Assembly: GCA_965208675.1 (NCBI GenBank)
Contig: OZ242351.1
Location: forward strand, 1,216,001 to 1,280,000
Direction of reading: 5' to 3'
Origin: Candidatus Poribacteria bacterium
Lineage (GTDB): Bacteria > Poribacteria > WGA-4E > PCPOR2b
Length of the DNA stretch: 64,000 bases
The notes under the pieces were generated by a model. It searched no databases. It saw nothing but the letters and a program-made list of their open reading frames with translations, and had not been told where the DNA came from. The translations under genes and the position numbers were made by a program. Positions 2,932 through 40,192 of this stretch are shown here, piece by piece. The number at the start of each line of letters is the position of its first letter. Position 1 is the stretch's first letter.

Positions 2932-4722
2932 ATGAATCCAATCGAATTTGAAGTCATCCGAAATGCACTGGTCGAAGCCACGGAAGAGATGGCGATTGCG
3001 CTGCGTCGCAGTGCGTATTCCACCAACATCAAGACCAGAGCTGATTTCTCGTGCGCCTTTTTTGACCGCCAACTGCAACCCGTTGCCCAAGCATTTACGC
3101 AACCCGTTCACCTAGGATCGCTAACTGAATTCGTGCCGAGAGTTGTCCGGGAGTATGGACCAGAGAACCTCGAACCGGGCGATGCGATTCTCTCCAATCA
3201 CCCTTATCTGGGCGGCGTTCACCTGAACGATATCACGCTCATCTCTCCGGTGTATTGCCTAGCCCCCCGCACCGTAAATCCGGACAATTCTAAAGGTACA
3301 CTTTTTCAAGATAATGAGGAGCGTCAGGATTGGACGCCAGAACTCTTCGGTTACGTTGCGAATCTAGCGCATCATGTGGACGTGGGCGGCGGCGCGCCCG
3401 CGAGCATAGGCGCGTTCCGCGAGGTCTATCAAGAGGGAATTATCATCCCCCCGGTGAAGCTCGTACAGCGGGGAGAAATTGTTCAGGACATTTTCCGGCT
3501 AGTGCTAGGCCAGATTCGCTCCAAGCATGAGACCGCGGGAGATTTTCGCGCACAGATAGCGGCTAATAACACTGGTGTCCGCCGGCTGAACGCGCTTCTA
3601 GGGCGCACGGGCGCAGATAAAGTAGCCTTATGCGTCAATGAACTGCTTGAATACACCGAACGCCGAACTCGTGCCGAGTTGGCAAAACTCCCAAAGGGGA
3701 CGTTTGCCGCTGACGGTTATGTTGATAACGATGGTTTCACCGATAAACCCGTGCGCCTCGCCGCGAAGATGGTCATTGACGATGATGGCGTCCTTTTCGA
3801 TTTGACGGGTTCAGATCCGCAAAGGCGTGCCCCAGTAAATTCCACGTTTGCCCAGACCTATTCCGCCTGCGCGTATGTGCTCAAGAGTCTCCTCGATCCT
3901 GACATTCCGGTCAACGCTGGATTCTACCGTCTGGTCCGCATCGTGGCTCCGCCCGGAACGGTGGTCAACTGTACCTCGCCAGCGCCAGTGGTGGGCGGTT
4001 GGGAAACGCAAGTACGTCTCAGCGACATCCTGCTGAAGGCAATCGCACAGGTTCTACCCGACCGAATCCCTGCGGGAACAAAGGCAATGATGGCACAGGT
4101 AGGCTTTGGAGCTGCGCATCCTCGCACGGGCGAACTCTACGCTTTTTACGAAACGCTAGCTGGCGGCTATGGCGGTAGAACGTCGAGCGATGGACCTGAC
4201 GCGGTGCAGTGCCACGGTCAGAACACAGAAAATGCGCCTATTGAGGAAACTGAGATTAATTACCCGGTTCGTATAAACCGTTACGAACTCGTAGAAGACT
4301 CTGATGGGGCAGGCAAACATCGCGGCGGGTTGGGGTTGCGGCGAGACTATTTCTTTGATCATGAAGCCTCGTTCACAATCCTGTCTGATCGCGACAGATG
4401 GGGACCGCAGGGGCTTTTCGGTGGGCTGCCCGGAAAGGTGGCTAGCTATGTGCTGAACCCCGATACCGACGCCGTCACGCTCGGTTCCAAGGTAACAGTT
4501 CAACTCAAACCGGGAGACGTGGTGAGTTTTCGCACCTGCGGCGGCGGCGGTTACGGCCCGCCTGAAGACCGTGATCCGCAATTGGTTTTGAGCGATGTGC
4601 GTGACGGCAAAGTTAGTCCGGCGCGTGCGAGAAAAATCTATGGTGTATCCATCGACACAGACACATGGACAGCAGAGAAGGCGGATACCTCGATCCCGCA
4701 AACAAATAGTGCGGCGAAGTGA
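2932..4722 (+). CDS. Hydantoinase B/oxoprolinase family protein
   Basis: Start re-called at ATG 2932 (MNPIEFEVIRNAL). Motifs RRSAYSTNIK..ADFSCA, HPYLGGVHLND, HHVDVGG and GGGGYGPP. Confidence 0.93.
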   Translation: MNPIEFEVIRNALVEATEEMAIALRRSAYSTNIKTRADFSCAFFDRQLQPVAQAFTQPVHLGSLTEFVPRVVREYGPENLEPGDAILSNHPYLGGVHLNDITLISPVYCLAPRTVNPDNSKGTLFQDNEERQDWTPELFGYVANLAHHVDVGGGAPASIGAFREVYQEGIIIPPVKLVQRGEIVQDIFRLVLGQIRSKHETAGDFRAQIAANNTGVRRLNALLGRTGADKVALCVNELLEYTERRTRAELAKLPKGTFAADGYVDNDGFTDKPVRLAAKMVIDDDGVLFDLTGSDPQRRAPVNSTFAQTYSACAYVLKSLLDPDIPVNAGFYRLVRIVAPPGTVVNCTSPAPVVGGWETQVRLSDILLKAIAQVLPDRIPAGTKAMMAQVGFGAAHPRTGELYAFYETLAGGYGGRTSSDGPDAVQCHGQNTENAPIEETEINYPVRINRYELVEDSDGAGKHRGGLGLRRDYFFDHEASFTILSDRDRWGPQGLFGGLPGKVASYVLNPDTDAVTLGSKVTVQLKPGDVVSFRTCGGGGYGPPEDRDPQLVLSDVRDGKVSPARARKIYGVSIDTDTWTAEKADTSIPQTNSAAK

Positions 4723-35800: not shown

Positions 35801-36006
35801 TCGAAACTGTCGAACAGAAAAAAGACGTAGAGCAAGTAATCGCCCACGCCTCAAATCAAATCTCAATTTCCGAACTGGCGAAAGATGCAAACCGATACTT
35901 TGAACGGGCCGAAGCAGCGAGAAGAGCGGGGAAGTGGGATGAATACGGGCGTTTTCACAATCTGCTGGAGCAGACATTGAAGCAGTTGGACGAAAACGCA
36001 AATTAG
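32806..36006 (+). CDS. UPF0182 family membrane protein
   Basis: LWFNMVGY, DPIF..NVSYYVF, VRLWDWRP, DVDIDRY, YTHGYG, NYIRNAVK.TVDAYDG, RGNLLIIP and LLYVEPIY. Confidence 0.95.
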   Translation: MHSRFKRLIVLAAVLAVIVSIIAIFVNIYPNVLWFNMVGYVSVFTEILLAKVALGAAVGGLFLVILLVNLYLIWRFTPSQLSPTLLESIPISGEFDFDLRKMIYVVLALLAIAFSALMGYTAADRWEIALRYFKADDLAFQSASRLSETVERGNTDVLISQLDVEAKGLKIGDKVVIEQENQSHEANVNSINSAGNGRSKITLSRPLDFTTTEKAVLTAAARDPIFDKNVSYYVFRMPFERFICGNLVGLFLLMTIFSAVLYFFHGSLIGDNNRFDPPQRVKTHLFVLVGITLLTRAWNYRFTMFDLLYATNDVVRGGGGYAAIQARLLVLEILLALSIICAIVFLISIFLRRISPAVGGVVILLIVGFFGQVYPRLIQRLKVEPNKQELESKYINFNIKATLFAYDLEDNTVTEEEYPLTGELSYEQITNEENSAVVNSVRLWDWRPLRRTFRQLQELRRQYDFADVDIDRYPMEDGEARQVMLSTRELDLNELRNEDWYKRTYVYTHGYGAVMSPVNEIDDGKPKMYIEDIPVNYAAEWTDNRFNAAPGPRIYYGELTPHYAIVHPGRDDKLEFDYPEQGQGYAKYSYTGQGGVQLASFLRRFVYMLKFNNELNFILSREITSTSRVLYHRNIQERVQKIAPFLRFDKDPYAVIHNGRLIWMIDAYTTTRRYPYSAPMPDVVRATIAERQGRRAASRIVGSEQPWDGNYIRNAVKVTVDAYDGTVDFYLMKRENDPIVECYNRIFPNLFKPFDDMPEDLKSHIRYPTTMFLIQARMYQDYHMKDPTTFYAQEDPWEIGKEVYDTTERPRNQPIAPPSPFPTQQVSPQPLLTNEQEVAPYYVVIKLPGEEQAEFMLMLPFTPKSKLNLTAWLAARCDLPQYGQLLVYRFPKGKLAPGPMQVENFITQKPEISEQISLWNREGSRVLRGNLLIIPMHNALLYVEPIYIQSENEDSAIPELRRVVIGYKENVVWGASFDEALVKMFGRTAAAGVPPAAELETVEQKKDVEQVIAHASNQISISELAKDANRYFERAEAARRAGKWDEYGRFHNLLEQTLKQLDENAN

Positions 36007-36036
36007 CAACCAACAACTAACACGGAGGTGACTCAA

Positions 36037-36291
36037 ATGGGACTCGACTGGAAACCGCGTCACCGGGATTTAGTCATTGGCGGCATTCCTTGGCTTGCCC
36101 GAATCACGGATAAAGCGCGCGCCAAATTGAACGGGACTATCGGCGACTACATTTACCCGTGACCAATGGATCAATCAGTATTCCTGGAGGAATACAAGCT
36201 CACAGGCGACGAGTTTATTGAAATCGTAAAAAATAATCCGTCAGACGATGACATGATTGCTGCGATTCGTTCGCTGGCGAAAGAACAATAA
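36037..36291 (+). CDS. Small DUF5069-like protein with in-frame TGA (candidate selenoprotein, 84 aa)
   Basis: Strong SD GGAGGTG (36024-36030). Translation MGLDWKPRHRDLVIGGIPWLARITDKARAKLNGTIGDYIYP-[TGA 36160]-PMDQSVFLEEYKLTGDEFIEIVKNNPSDDDMIAAIRSLAKEQ. Family resemblance continues on both sides of the TGA. Confidence 0.8.
36178..36195 (+). promoter_or_regulatory. Bacterial SECIS-like stem-loop
   Basis: GTATTCC-TGGA-GGAATAC is a perfect 7-bp stem. The loop starts 23 nt after the UGA and has G at loop position 2. Confidence 0.6.
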
Positions 36292-36342
36292 TTCGAGTTG
36301 TTATCGTAACAAGTGCATTACTCATGTTGGAGATGTCTTTAA

Positions 36343-37407
36343 TTGAATCTGGCAGACTACCGAAATCAGATCGATCAACTTGATGATCAAATCTTGGATC
36401 TCTTGCTTCAACGCGCGCGAATTGCCAAAAAGGTAGGAGACTTCAAAGAAAGCGCAAACACGGGGACTGTGTATGCGCCGCACCGTGAAAAAGAGATTCT
36501 GACTCGGTTGAAGGCGCGCAACAGGGATGGATTTCCACCCATTGCCCTTGAGAAAATTTATAAAGAGATTATTTCGGCTTGCAGATTTTTAGAAAAGCCA
36601 TTGCGCATTGCATACCTCGGCCCCGTTGGTAGTTTTGGGCATGCAGCCAGCCTGCGCCATTTTGGCGGCTCGGCAAATTTCATTCCGCAATCGCCTCAAA
36701 CCGATATCTTCGTAGAGGTCGAAGCTAGCAGGGCCGATTACGGAGTGGTTGCAATCGAAAATTCCACATACGGTAGTGTGCGCGACGTTTTGGAAATGTT
36801 CCAGCACTCGCAGTTGCAAATTTGCGCCGAAATCTTCCTGCCAATTGATCACAACCTGCTCTCAAATTCTCCACTGAACGAAGTCGTTAAAGTCTACTCA
36901 CATCCGCAACCCTTTGCGCAATGCAGAAAATGGCTTCATCAAAACTTGGAAGGTGTTCAACAAATTGAAGTCGCAAGTACGTCTGAGGCCGCGCGAATAG
37001 CCGCCGACCAACACGGTGCCGCGGCAATCGCTAGCAAGCTGGCAGCGGAAATCTATGATTTGCCTATTTCCAACCCGTCAATCATGGACGACCCAAGTAA
37101 CACAACCCGCTTCCTTGTTATTGGATGGCACGCCGCGGAAAGAAGCGGAAACGACCGGACATCAATCCTTTTCGCTATTAAAGACAAAGTCGGTGCGCTC
37201 TATGAAGTCCTCAGTGTCTTGGAGCGCAAAGGTATCAATATGAGTCGGATTGAATCCTTGCCCGCCCGAACAAAAGCTTGGGAGTACGTTTTCTTTGTTG
37301 ATTTTGATGGGCACCCCGAAGATGAAAACGTCCGAACCGCTCTAGACGAGATTGAAGAGCTATGCGTGCTCGCAAAAATCCTTGGGGTTTATCCGTGTGC
37401 TTCCTAG
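36343..37407 (+). CDS. pheA: Chorismate mutase/prephenate dehydratase (P-protein)
   Basis: RNQIDQLD, AYLGP.GSF, IENST.GSV, SHPQPFAQC, NTTRF and ACT domain with IESLP. Confidence 0.96.
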   Translation: MNLADYRNQIDQLDDQILDLLLQRARIAKKVGDFKESANTGTVYAPHREKEILTRLKARNRDGFPPIALEKIYKEIISACRFLEKPLRIAYLGPVGSFGHAASLRHFGGSANFIPQSPQTDIFVEVEASRADYGVVAIENSTYGSVRDVLEMFQHSQLQICAEIFLPIDHNLLSNSPLNEVVKVYSHPQPFAQCRKWLHQNLEGVQQIEVASTSEAARIAADQHGAAAIASKLAAEIYDLPISNPSIMDDPSNTTRFLVIGWHAAERSGNDRTSILFAIKDKVGALYEVLSVLERKGINMSRIESLPARTKAWEYVFFVDFDGHPEDENVRTALDEIEELCVLAKILGVYPCAS

Positions 37408-37416
37408 GTTGGTAAA

Positions 37417-38481
37417 TTATCTATACCATATGACAACCGAAATCAGGTTCACAAAACTATGTGTAATGATCGCAGGAATAATTGACTTCGTTCTAACAGA
37501 CAGCGCGGCGTAGGTTAGACCCATAACAAATATTGGGATGAATCGTAGTACGGACCCATGGAGAAGAGCAAACAAAAGAGAACTCAACAAAAGCCCCTTC
37601 TGATTCCCGAATCGATCGGACAAGGCGCTGTACATTATCCCTCGGAATAAAATTTCCTCGCCGACCGGCGTCAGAACAAGTAATACAAAACCCATGAGCA
37701 CCACAGAGGCGTCACGAAGATGTTCTGGCATGCCGGTCGCTTGGCGCTCTTCTTCCATCTTTATTAGAGATTCTACCGCACTGGACGATATTATGCCGTT
37801 TAATCCGGTTATCACCTGCATTCCGGCTTCTGAGATCAACACCAAAACCGGACCAAGTAGAAAGGGTAAACCGAATATCTTAATATCGCCGCTGAATCTC
37901 AGCCCAACGGCGGCAAGTGGTCTACGATAACGCACGGTCACACAATGGAGGCATAACCAAATCAGAACATTCCGTACAATCAGCTCAATAATCCAAACGT
38001 GAGAAGGTGGAAGCGTCAATATATATGAAGCGATGTCTTGTGGCTCCAATAACTTCTCCGCACCCTCCGAAAACCCAATCGCCGCAAACAGGGCAAAATT
38101 GTGAACCAATAGAGCGGCCAAGATGATAACAATTGCGTCTGATGGCTCAAAATACCCGTGTAACTTCGATATTGTTTCCTCTACGGTGTAAGACCGATTA
38201 CAGTATCTACACTGGCGCGTGGTGGCGCGGTTTTTTCGATGACAATCGCGGCATGTCCAAATAAGTTCTGGAGGTCGATTCCAAAAATATAGCGGGAAAA
38301 ACGCCTCTGGGACGAAAAGGACGCCTAAAATCCATAGCATCGACCGCTCCCGAAGCTTGATATCGCGGTACGTCCAAAGCGCCAAACCGACATGAATTAG
38401 CATCCGAACCAATAGCCCGATTATCTCCAACAAATCACGCACTCCCGCCAATGATTGAGCGTCGCGCATAGTAGCACGCAC
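37417..38481 (-). CDS. CPBP/CAAX (Abi) intramembrane protease with N-terminal RanBP2-type zinc finger
   Basis: EEILFRG, LFALLH and H...N motifs, plus WTCRDCHRKNRATTRQCRYC. Confidence 0.85.
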   Translation of the reverse strand: MRATMRDAQSLAGVRDLLEIIGLLVRMLIHVGLALWTYRDIKLRERSMLWILGVLFVPEAFFPLYFWNRPPELIWTCRDCHRKNRATTRQCRYCNRSYTVEETISKLHGYFEPSDAIVIILAALLVHNFALFAAIGFSEGAEKLLEPQDIASYILTLPPSHVWIIELIVRNVLIWLCLHCVTVRYRRPLAAVGLRFSGDIKIFGLPFLLGPVLVLISEAGMQVITGLNGIISSSAVESLIKMEEERQATGMPEHLRDASVVLMGFVLLVLTPVGEEILFRGIMYSALSDRFGNQKGLLLSSLLFALLHGSVLRFIPIFVMGLTYAALSVRTKSIIPAIITHSFVNLISVVIWYR

Positions 38482-38668
38482 ATGTCTTTTTTGTCAACCG
38501 CCTTCACGTTTCCAATCGCCCAGTTTCTATGTAACTTTCTACGCTGTACCTCCACAAATCGTCGTCGTATGACGCATACCGGTTCAGTTTCTGGCACCAG
38601 TCGTCAATCAGCAGTGCGGTCGGCACTTGAACTGTCCGCGGAACGAAAAAATAGGGCAAAAAAAGGGT

Positions 38669-39793
38669 ATGAGCCTAACAGAGCAAATTAAAGATTTCGC
38701 GCAAAAACTTGGATTCAGTCTTGTCGGTATTGCCCCGGCGGAACCCAGCCAAACAATCGATCGCTACGAGAGGTGGTTGGAGAGCGGTTACGGCGGGGAA
38801 ATGCGTTATCTCGAAAGACATTCGCCGTTGAAACAGAATGTTCGGAATCTACTACCGGAAGCCAAATCAATCATAACGTTAGGATTCAATTACTATACTA
38901 TCGATCCACCCGCATCGCTCGCTGACGATTCATCCCGGGGGCAAATTTCCCGATATGCGTGGGGAACGGATTACCACGATATTATTCAAAAGAAACTTCG
39001 TCGGTTGGCGCAGTTCATTAAAGCGGCTGCACAGGAACAGGTTAAAAGCAGAGTCTATGTCGATTCGGGCCCAATTCTTGAGCGCGAATACGCGCAGAAA
39101 GCGGGAATCGGTTGGATCGGCAAAAACACTAACTTGATTAACTGGCAATCGGGATCGTGGTATTTTCTTGCAGAACTGCTCGTCAGCGTCGCATTGGACC
39201 ATGATTACCTGCCGCCGCGCGGCGATTGCGGTACATGCACACTCTGTATCGAAGCATGCCCAACGGACGCCATTATTTCGCCAAATCTCCTCGATTCCCG
39301 CCTCTGCATCTCATACCTCACCATTGAATTAAAAGGCAGCATCCCTCGAAATCTGCGGCCGCAAATGGAAAACTTAATCTTCGGCTGCGACATCTGCCAA
39401 GAAGTTTGCCCGTGGAACAGCAAAGCAAAACCTACACAGGAACGCGGTTTTTACCCGCGGAAGGGCAACCTTGCGCCCAAACTGATTTCGCTTATCAACA
39501 TGACCCAAGAGGAGTTTAGCAAACGCTTCAAGAACAGCCCAATTAAGCGAGCTAAGCGGAAGGGGTTTTTACGGAATGTCGCCGTCGCGCTAGGGAATTG
39601 GAAGAGTCGTGCGGCGGTGCCTGCTCTCAAAACCGCACTGAACGACGATGAACCGTTGGTGCGTGCACATGCCGCGTGGGCGCTCGGACAAATCAACGTT
39701 AAATCCGCCAAAACGGCATTACGGGAACGGATAAAAGTGGAATCAAAAACAGCCGTCATTGACGAAATTAACGACGCCCTGCGCGTAAGTTGA
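38669..39793 (+). CDS. queG: tRNA epoxyqueuosine(34) reductase
   Basis: ISRYAWGTDYH, DSGPILER, CGTCTLCIEACPT, CISYLTIE, GCDICQEVCPWN and a C-terminal HEAT repeat. Confidence 0.96.
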   Translation: MSLTEQIKDFAQKLGFSLVGIAPAEPSQTIDRYERWLESGYGGEMRYLERHSPLKQNVRNLLPEAKSIITLGFNYYTIDPPASLADDSSRGQISRYAWGTDYHDIIQKKLRRLAQFIKAAAQEQVKSRVYVDSGPILEREYAQKAGIGWIGKNTNLINWQSGSWYFLAELLVSVALDHDYLPPRGDCGTCTLCIEACPTDAIISPNLLDSRLCISYLTIELKGSIPRNLRPQMENLIFGCDICQEVCPWNSKAKPTQERGFYPRKGNLAPKLISLINMTQEEFSKRFKNSPIKRAKRKGFLRNVAVALGNWKSRAAVPALKTALNDDEPLVRAHAAWALGQINVKSAKTALRERIKVESKTAVIDEINDALRVS

Positions 39794-39891: not shown

Positions 39892-39963
39892 TGCCGGTGC
39901 GGAGAGTTGAACTCCGGACAACACGATTATGAGTCGTGTGCTCTACCACTGAGCTACACCGGC
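39892..39963 (-). tRNA. tRNA with CAT anticodon, most likely elongator tRNA-Met (Ile2 not excluded)
   Basis: Cloverleaf: acceptor GCCGGTG/CACCGGC, D arm GCTC/GAGC, anticodon arm CACGA-CTCATAA-TCGTG, T arm CGGAG-TTCAACT-CTCCG. CCA is not encoded. Confidence 0.93.
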
Positions 39964-39969
39964 GGTGTG

Positions 39970-40005
39970 AAAAAAGGGAAACGCGCACATAGAGCGCATT
40001 TCCCT
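39970..40005 (-). terminator. Intrinsic terminator-like hairpin between tRNA-fMet and tRNA-Met
   Basis: Minus strand AGGGAAATGCGC-TCTATGT-GCGCGTTTCCCT-TTTTT (12-bp stem with one G-U pair, then a U tract). Confidence 0.6.
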
Positions 40006-40010
40006 CAAAA

Positions 40011-40085
<75 letters not shown>

Positions 40086-40107
40086 CAAGTGTCGCGAAGG
40101 ACACATA

Positions 40108-40192
40108 TGGGCGAGGAGGGATTCGAACCCTCACACCCGGTTATGGGCGATGGATTTTAAGTCCATTGTGTCTGCCATTCCACCACTCGCCC
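40108..40192 (-). tRNA. tRNA-Leu (TAA)
   Basis: Acceptor GGGCGAG/CTCGCCC, anticodon arm ATGGA-CTTAAAA-TCCAT, long variable arm and TTCGAAT T loop. Confidence 0.95.

Follow-up and report, generated by a model that had tools for sequence, protein, structure and literature searches.

Bacterial genes that are decoded with SelB and an in-frame selenocysteine insertion sequence (SECIS), for which fdhF of Escherichia coli is the model case, carry a UGA codon where homologues have a cysteine (Cys) and a hairpin just 3' of this UGA within the coding sequence, and selA, selB, selC and selD are present in the genome. A review from 2026 (PMC13188914) presents 119 prokaryotic selenoprotein families or subfamilies with their domain identifiers in its Table 1, and states that most listed selenoproteins have a CxxU or UxxC motif or a thioredoxin-like fold. 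Here we analysed a stretch of 64,000 nucleotides (nt) of a Candidatus Poribacteria bacterium (assembly GCA_965208675.1, contig OZ242351.1, positions 1,216,001 to 1,280,000), which we call the window. Between a UPF0182 gene and pheA it holds a small gene of the DUF5069 family (Pfam PF16798) with an in-frame TGA at the position of a conserved Cys, and by comparison with its orthologues this gene very probably encodes a true selenoprotein that is made in one piece. The locus shares with the SelB-dependent genes all the features listed above, and its decoding mechanism is the known bacterial one. It differs from them in its very small hairpin, which has five invariant pairs, or seven in the window, and a folding energy of its own of -6.6 kcal/mol, short of the limit of -7.5 kcal/mol in the consensus model that the review quotes.

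An in-frame UGA at the conserved cysteine of DUF5069

The initial annotation, which was made from the letters of the window, had placed a Shine-Dalgarno sequence, an ATG, a TGA and a hairpin in the gap between UPF0182 and pheA, and on re-reading all of these were found where it had put them. The frame starts with ATG at 36037, has 84 sense codons and ends with TAA at 36289-36291; translation confirmed that it is broken only by the TGA at codon 42. In 28 of the 30 orthologous loci that were compared here, GGAGGTGA stands 5' of the ATG, and the remaining two have GCGAGGTA instead, while all 30 have the TGA at codon 42, preceded by ...Y-I/V-Y-P.

The read-through product matched PF16798 over profile positions 4-78 of 133 (E-value 5.7e-15, 56.1 bits, cut-off 27), and in a genome-wide search with this profile the locus scored 50.7 bits, with one TGA. 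The predicted selenoprotein is a short form of DUF5069, comprising 75 of the 133 profile positions from the N-terminal side. When aligned with the product, all 37 Cys-form homologues have Cys in the column of the TGA, and this is one of ten invariant columns (P7, R8, R22, D25, K26, R28, P41, C42, D45 and F60). The sole solved relative is PDB 3OMD, a 145-residue uncharacterised protein from Leptospirillum rubarum, in which YNCPLDQ lies opposite YPUPMDQ. The product resembles 3OMD in profile match, fold and Cys position; it differs in covering only residues 4-84 of the 145-residue chain and in having selenocysteine (Sec) for Cys. The profile match, the Cys forms and 3OMD together bear out the earlier proposal that the TGA falls on the conserved Cys of DUF5069.

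The genome of the window, which consists of one contig of 4.89 Mb, also encodes a distant second DUF5069 paralogue (G000:C1:689389-689679; L098 1447-1893) of 148 aa that scored 27.8 bits. It has Cys at the aligned position (...DYDECGMGFDQ...) and is located upstream of a BatA/VWA gene. Longer stop-free paralogues occur in relatives, some of them as frames of 285-460 aa with two or three successive matches to the DUF5069 query (for instance G006:C1:4807985-4808593, G026:C7:15002-15637 and G025:C102:9884-10948), and these multi-match frames resemble tandem-repeat paralogues of the DUF5069 domain.

The TGA is conserved well beyond the genome in which it was noticed. In each of 41 genomes of the same order (four families, 14 genera), the best match, 65-99% identical over residues 1-80 or more, has exactly one TGA. 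A sample of the phylum comprised 151 genomes, the records of the relatives being titled Candidatus Poribacteria, with an E-value of 1e-15 or better defining an orthologue. Orthologues were present in 145 of these genomes, 140 of them with the TGA and five without a stop and with Cys, all five from one family; the other six genomes gave no match with the window query. The codon also alternates with Cys codons among relatives, as 36 of 52 genome loci in named records have TGA and 16 have TGC or TGT. The TGA forms are in records titled Poribacteria (30), Latescibacterota (2), Gemmatimonadota, Planctomycetota, Limnochordia and one uncultured bacterium, so that six of the 52 loci are Sec forms outside the phylum of the window. 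The Cys forms are in records titled Poribacteria, Chloroflexota, Latescibacterota, Handelsmanbacteria, Bacillota, Gemmatimonas and Eremiobacterota. A maximum-likelihood tree of 95 rows (43 Sec, with W-called database rows counted in, and 52 Cys) needs four switches between Sec and Cys, of which well-supported branches force at least three, the tree being drawn from 83 columns only and having many open forks.

Selection on the two halves of the gene was compared by pairwise ratios of nonsynonymous to synonymous substitution rates (dN/dS) among 42 distinct orthologous coding sequences. The ratio was 0.083 ahead of the TGA (codons 2-41) and 0.126 past it (codons 43-79), based on 512 (upstream) and 478 (downstream) of 861 pairs that are not independent of one another; pairs were kept only if dS was 0.05-3, and the downstream value leaves out four hairpin codons. 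A ratio of 0.126 past the TGA indicates that translation continues beyond it. Contigs of four public runs, one of which may be the source of the window and three of which come from other sponge-metagenome studies, showed up to 24 differences per contig over 35950-36400 and none at 36160-36162. The TGA is thus neither an assembly error, since contigs from other studies agree with it, nor a private nonsense allele, given its presence throughout the order and in most orthologues of the phylum. Comparison of these genomes shows that the gene is real and that its UGA is under selection.

In public protein sets this conservation is hidden. Among 32 homologues that were fetched of 54 in the database, the Sec position is Trp in 11 and Cys in 17, and four sequences end at ...YIYP. 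Cluster representatives numbered 286, and of the best 150 of them 12 stop precisely at query residue 41. The source names are 'DUF5069 domain-containing protein' or 'hypothetical protein', and these apply to Cys forms only. In public sets the Sec forms are either truncated at the UGA or given a Trp, apparently under the wrong code, which is the missed or split gene that the initial annotation had anticipated from gene callers.

The hairpin 3' of the UGA and the selenocysteine machinery

The hairpin begins 15 nt past the TGA, with GTATTCC (36178-36184) and GGAATAC (36189-36195) as arms around the loop TGGA (36185-36188). The bacterial SECIS consensus of the review has a loop of 3-9 nt with G in the first two loop positions, a stem of 4-16 bp, a spacing of 16-37 nt and a minimum free energy (MFE) of at most -7.5 kcal/mol. 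In the window the loop is 4 nt long with G at its second position, followed by another G, the stem has 7 bp (5 in most orthologues) and 22 nt separate the UGA from the loop (19 nt in most orthologues). Folding of the 45-nt stretch that begins at the UGA gives an MFE of -9.2 kcal/mol, which is within the consensus limit.

That the hairpin exceeds chance emerges only from the comparison across orthologues, and not from the fold energy of a single sequence. Of 34 distinct Sec forms, 33 carry its core TTCCTGGAGGAA unchanged, and all 16 Cys forms lack it. The Phe-Leu-Glu-Glu that it encodes is written TTC CTG GAG GAA in all 42 distinct orthologous coding sequences, without any synonymous change; elsewhere in the gene the codon entropy is 1.66-2.07 bits at fully conserved Leu codons and 0.96 bits at Phe59. 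The pair that closes the four-pair core varies in a compensatory manner, being G-C in 26 sequences, C-G in five, A-U in one (the window) and G-U in one, and two outer pairs, of several types, are formed by roughly half of the sequences. The covariation score was 0.184 as compared to 0.063 in shuffles, was reached by none of 500 shuffles, and was 0.12 or lower once the partner was slid. RNAalifold likewise retained the five-pair hairpin. This comparison shows selection on the hairpin at the RNA level, and both its nucleotide-level conservation and its covarying closing pair agree with the SECIS-like element that had been proposed from the single sequence.

Searching 35900-36450 against Rfam returned no family at E-values up to 1. 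The Limnochordia Sec form lacks the 12-mer and has another 7-bp hairpin at the same place (GGUUUCU-GGC-AGAAGCC, read by eye). A lower SECIS stem, in which the codons after the UGA pair with GCUG about 30 nt further on, appeared in some single-sequence folds and was rejected, as RNAalifold drops this pairing. TTCCTGGAGGAA was found once in the 4.89-Mb genome and the fold of the selD hairpin has no likeness to that of the DUF5069 gene; a SECIS motif shared within the genome can therefore not be claimed.

The genome has the full Sec machinery, the presence of which had been left to be verified by the initial annotation. A tRNA-Sec gene (selC) with anticodon TCA scored 77.5 bits, SelA 527 bits and the SelB wing domain 67.7 bits, and selA, selB and selC are clustered on the minus strand (G000:C1:2131409-2134655; L001, L009, L010). 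The selD gene (G000:C1:4649539-4650462; L011; 376 bits) is itself a selenoprotein gene with one in-frame TGA (VKCAGU...). SelA was also detected in five of five Sec-form genomes of other phyla. In the genome of one Cys-form locus (L095), the SelA match is in two adjoining pieces in different frames (G164:C9:139000-140077, profile positions 1-221 and 214-366), which may be a frameshift or a decaying selA.

Table 1. Features of the DUF5069 locus in the window, and groups of homologous sequences and loci referred to in the text
Feature	Position or identifiers	Strand	Basis and remarks
UPF0182 gene, 1066 aa	32806..36006	+	Pfam PF03699, 816 bits
Shine-Dalgarno GGAGGTG	36024..36030	+	read directly; 6 nt 5' of the start codon
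Predicted short-form DUF5069 selenoprotein gene	36037..36291	+	translation and Pfam; 84 residues, Sec at 42, TAA stop
In-frame TGA, codon 42, proposed Sec	36160..36162	+	context ...GDYIYP-U-PMDQ...; aligns with the invariant Cys
SECIS-like hairpin, 7-bp stem GUAUUCC/GGAAUAC, loop UGGA	36178..36195	+	folding and comparison
Invariant hairpin core TTCCTGGAGGAA, codons Phe-Leu-Glu-Glu	36181..36192	+	identity across orthologues
pheA (chorismate mutase, prephenate dehydratase, ACT)	36343..37407	+	Pfam
Homologues with Trp at the Sec position	P0002-P0004, P0006, P0007, P0009, P0010, P0014, P0017, P0019, P0021		short contigs, apparently TGA=Trp table
Stubs ending at ...YIYP	P0043, P0049, P0050, P0053		P0043 of 46 aa, with 20 member sequences
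Loci with the ~340-aa upstream protein	L079-L081, L083, L085, L086, L088, L090-L092, L094		

Protein structure, proposed mechanism and alternative readings

An AlphaFold model of the product (predicted local distance difference test 86.4, predicted template-modelling score 0.73) is mostly helical, with helices at 20-32, 43-50, 57-66 and 70-83 and two strands of two residues. Residue 42 lies directly before the second helix, in the motif Y-P-U/C-P-x-D. 3OMD was recovered as a structural match with a Foldseek E-value of 3.3e-4 and a TM-score of 0.80, and with a VIA Z of 12.4 and a root-mean-square deviation of 1.8 over 81 residues, at 38-43% identity. The other chains listed had Foldseek E-values of 5 or more and VIA Z of 3.6 or less. 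The ESM Atlas, searched with the natural Cys homologue P0020, gave DUF5069 clusters only, with scores up to 0.85, and no functional lead. Neither a CxxU or UxxC motif nor a thioredoxin-like fold was found in the product, which has no second Cys.

In the mechanism that we propose, the ribosome would start at ATG 36037, the hairpin 15 nt past the UGA at 36160-36162 would recruit SelB carrying Sec-tRNA(Sec), and after the insertion of Sec translation would run on to the TAA at 36289, giving an 84-residue protein in which a single Sec would replace the sole invariant Cys of DUF5069. Incorporating Sec is costly, and the residue is generally retained only at reactive positions, which would mark the invariant Cys of DUF5069 as its functional centre. 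The residue could then be the reactive centre, with a selenol that is nucleophilic or redox-active and that would be helped by its position where a helix begins. The invariant basic residues R8, R22, K26 and R28 may point to an anionic substrate or partner, and since the protein has no second Cys, recycling of the Sec by an external thiol system is proposed. We put forward this functional assignment tentatively, as possible rather than probable.

Several observations weigh against our interpretation, or limit how far it reaches. The sampled genomes are related, so the counts overstate the number of independent cases. SelA is also present in five of five Cys-form genomes tested, so the choice between Sec and Cys is not set by having the machinery, and the use of Sec is not explained by it. 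The hairpin alone, at -6.6 kcal/mol, is weaker than the consensus limit of -7.5 kcal/mol, and the fold energy of the single sequence does not stand out from chance (z -1.14, with 25 of 200 shuffles folding equally well). Most orthologues have five invariantly paired positions, the outer pairs being unpaired in 17 of 34 and 15 of 34 sequences, and the 12-mer also codes for a conserved Phe-Leu-Glu-Glu, so that its conservation is partly at the protein level. The functional part is weak, as there is no CxxU or UxxC motif, no known enzyme fold was found among the fold searches and no conserved neighbour is common to all lineages. The support as a whole is comparative, and the insertion of Sec as such and the chemistry of the residue are inferred.

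With these reservations, the TGA can be accounted for in other ways. The locus might be a broken gene, that is, a Cys-type DUF5069 gene with a nonsense mutation or an assembly error, and gene callers indeed treat it so, with public products ending at ...YIYP. The TGA is, however, present in 140 of 145 orthologues of the phylum and in other phyla, dN/dS remains at 0.126 downstream of it and the contigs of three other studies agree at 36160-36162, which leaves this explanation a negligible probability. A pair of small genes, one for a 41-residue peptide ending at the TGA and one for a second peptide from ATG 36166, is suggested by this ATG (Met44) lying one codon past the TGA and by 36166-36291 being an open reading frame (ORF) of 41 aa. 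Yet the ATG is confined to the genus of the window, other orthologues having Gln or Ala codons (CAG, CAA, GCG, GCT) there, no ribosome site was found 5' of it, and both halves form one domain on the single 3OMD chain (Z 12.4 over 81 residues); we regard two genes as highly improbable. Read-through of the UGA by a near-cognate tRNA (Trp, Cys or Arg) or under a changed code would fit the Trp in 11 of the 32 fetched homologues. These Trp calls come from contigs with lengths of 531 to about 1100 bases (P0002 at 599), in keeping with a switch of translation table by the gene caller. In the window the code is standard, TGA being the ordinary stop of 14 of 36 ORFs of at least 250 aa. As every homologue without TGA has Cys, the pattern expected for Sec, and a dedicated hairpin and the full Sec machinery are present, read-through as another residue is also quite improbable.

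Another possibility accepts the selenoprotein and assigns the Sec a different role, in which it would bind a metal or cofactor, or be structural, and would not be a redox or nucleophilic centre. Formate dehydrogenase and [NiFeSe] hydrogenase are cases in which Sec binds a metal (PMC13188914), and a sole Cys or Sec without a resolving Cys would suit such a role. One ligand cannot hold a metal alone, however, and there is no conserved His or Cys nearby (the invariant residues are P, R, D, K, P, C, D and F); additional ligands might come from tandem or oligomeric forms. On balance we consider a ligand or structural role unlikely. The reading of the gene as a Sec-containing member of DUF5069, first made in the initial annotation, is thus supported by the comparative evidence, and each of the refuting conditions named there was checked, with none going against it.

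Gene neighbourhood and relation to described selenoproteins

In the window the UPF0182 gene ends 30 nt before the selenoprotein start codon, and no terminator-like site was found between the two genes on the plus strand. UPF0182 is directly upstream in 28 of 30 Sec-form loci of the phylum, and pheA is downstream in 20 of these 30 and in three of three close Cys-form loci. In the other two Sec-form loci (L048 2203-3979 and L072 2234-3978), the upstream gene encodes a fusion of glutaredoxin and thioredoxin reductase (a match to TIGR01292 at 373 bits, together with a Grx domain) that ends 22-23 nt before the selenoprotein start and is preceded by a dodecin gene. UPF0182 and pheA were considered as guides to function and set aside, because they are confined to the phylum of the window and may reflect inherited synteny. 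Sulfatase, glycosyltransferase and enolase-superfamily neighbours were set aside too, each of them occurring in few related loci only.

Beyond pheA, the window contains an Rce1-like CAAX protease family gene (37417-38481, minus strand) and the epoxyqueuosine reductase gene queG (38627-39793, plus strand); the Rce1-like family is also downstream in the related locus L059, and QueG in L058. These genes are followed on the minus strand by a tRNA cluster (39892-40192) with two tRNA-Met (CAT) and one tRNA-Leu (TAA), the latter being the source of a weak match to the tRNA-Sec model in the window (42.5 bits).

Of 19 loci outside the phylum, 11 are immediately preceded on the same strand by a gene for a protein of ~340 aa, with a mutual identity of 38-61% (Table 1), and three further loci have a relative of it at 25-27%. 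This protein has a weak match to APH (PF01636) and the kinase-type motifs VAK, DYNxRN and IEFAK. In L085, the sole locus where the junction was read, the stop of the APH-like gene (2970-3986) overlaps the start of the DUF5069 gene (3983-4252) as ATGA. The genome of the window contains an unlinked APH-like copy (G000:C1:3621666-3622691; L096 1471-2562) that scored 36 bits against a cut-off of 23.2 and adjoins genes for a Cu/Zn superoxide dismutase, a TPR protein and a methyltransferase. A complex prediction for the APH-like protein of L085 and the adjoining Cys-form DUF5069 protein returned 'no answer' with a score of 0.00, which counts neither way. We treat the APH-like protein as a lead to a partner of DUF5069 and not as a finding. 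In a far-reaching reading, which we consider doubtful, DUF5069 would be a new single-selenol enzyme with its own fold, Sec would be ancestral in the short form with Cys forms arising by repeated loss, because TTCCTGGAGGAA is common to Sec forms of several phyla, and the APH-like protein would be its partner outside the phylum. DUF5069 and the APH-like protein would in that case form a two-step system, in which a substrate might, for instance, be phosphorylated first and then attacked by the selenol.

Glutaredoxin-coupled arsenate reductase ArsC is a single-cysteine oxyanion reductase and offers a working analogy only. The two would have in common one catalytic Cys or Sec, several invariant Arg or Lys residues and recycling by an external thiol, and the glutaredoxin-thioredoxin reductase fusion upstream of the selenoprotein gene would fit, yet it occurs in only two of 30 related loci. 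ArsC showed no likeness in sequence, or in fold in the fold search, and the analogy is one of residue types alone.

With the 119 families of the review, the DUF5069 gene shares a Sec/Cys pair, TGA-containing homologues and a SECIS-like hairpin, which is evidence of the class there called 'predicted with high confidence'; it differs from most of them in having none of the typical motifs and folds. PF16798 was the only Pfam family matched by the product, and neither PF16798 nor DUF5069 is among the entries of Table 1 of the review. NCBIfam release 20.0, which includes the curated selenoprotein models, gave no match to the read-through product at E-values up to 1, and neither 'DUF5069' nor 'PF16798' was found in the searchable literature. 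The papers found there on selenoproteins or selenocysteine in Poribacteria include, judging by listings and abstracts, none on DUF5069. Whether a Sec form of this family had been reported was a question raised with the initial annotation, and no such report came to light in these sources. An earlier survey (PMC2398784) describes a 'hypothetical protein GOS_A' with two Sec sequences, 155 Cys homologues and no domain, which is not in Table 1 of the review either. The short DUF5069 form is almost certainly a real Sec-containing protein and probably represents a new selenoprotein family, with the GOS_A sequences and the supplements of other surveys standing outside this comparison.

The evidence for this family is unusually clean, and one more selenoprotein family would not astonish a specialist. 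What may be of wider use is that the two wrong shapes in which public sets present it, a Trp form paired with a stub, could serve to find other selenoproteins that have been missed. The very small hairpin, identical across phyla, would be a handy minimal element for SelB recognition in these lineages. Among the genomes searched, the Sec form occurs in almost every species of one sponge-associated candidate phylum and is scattered in at least four others, and its Sec may provide a first handle on the function of DUF5069, a family whose crystal structure dates from 2010.

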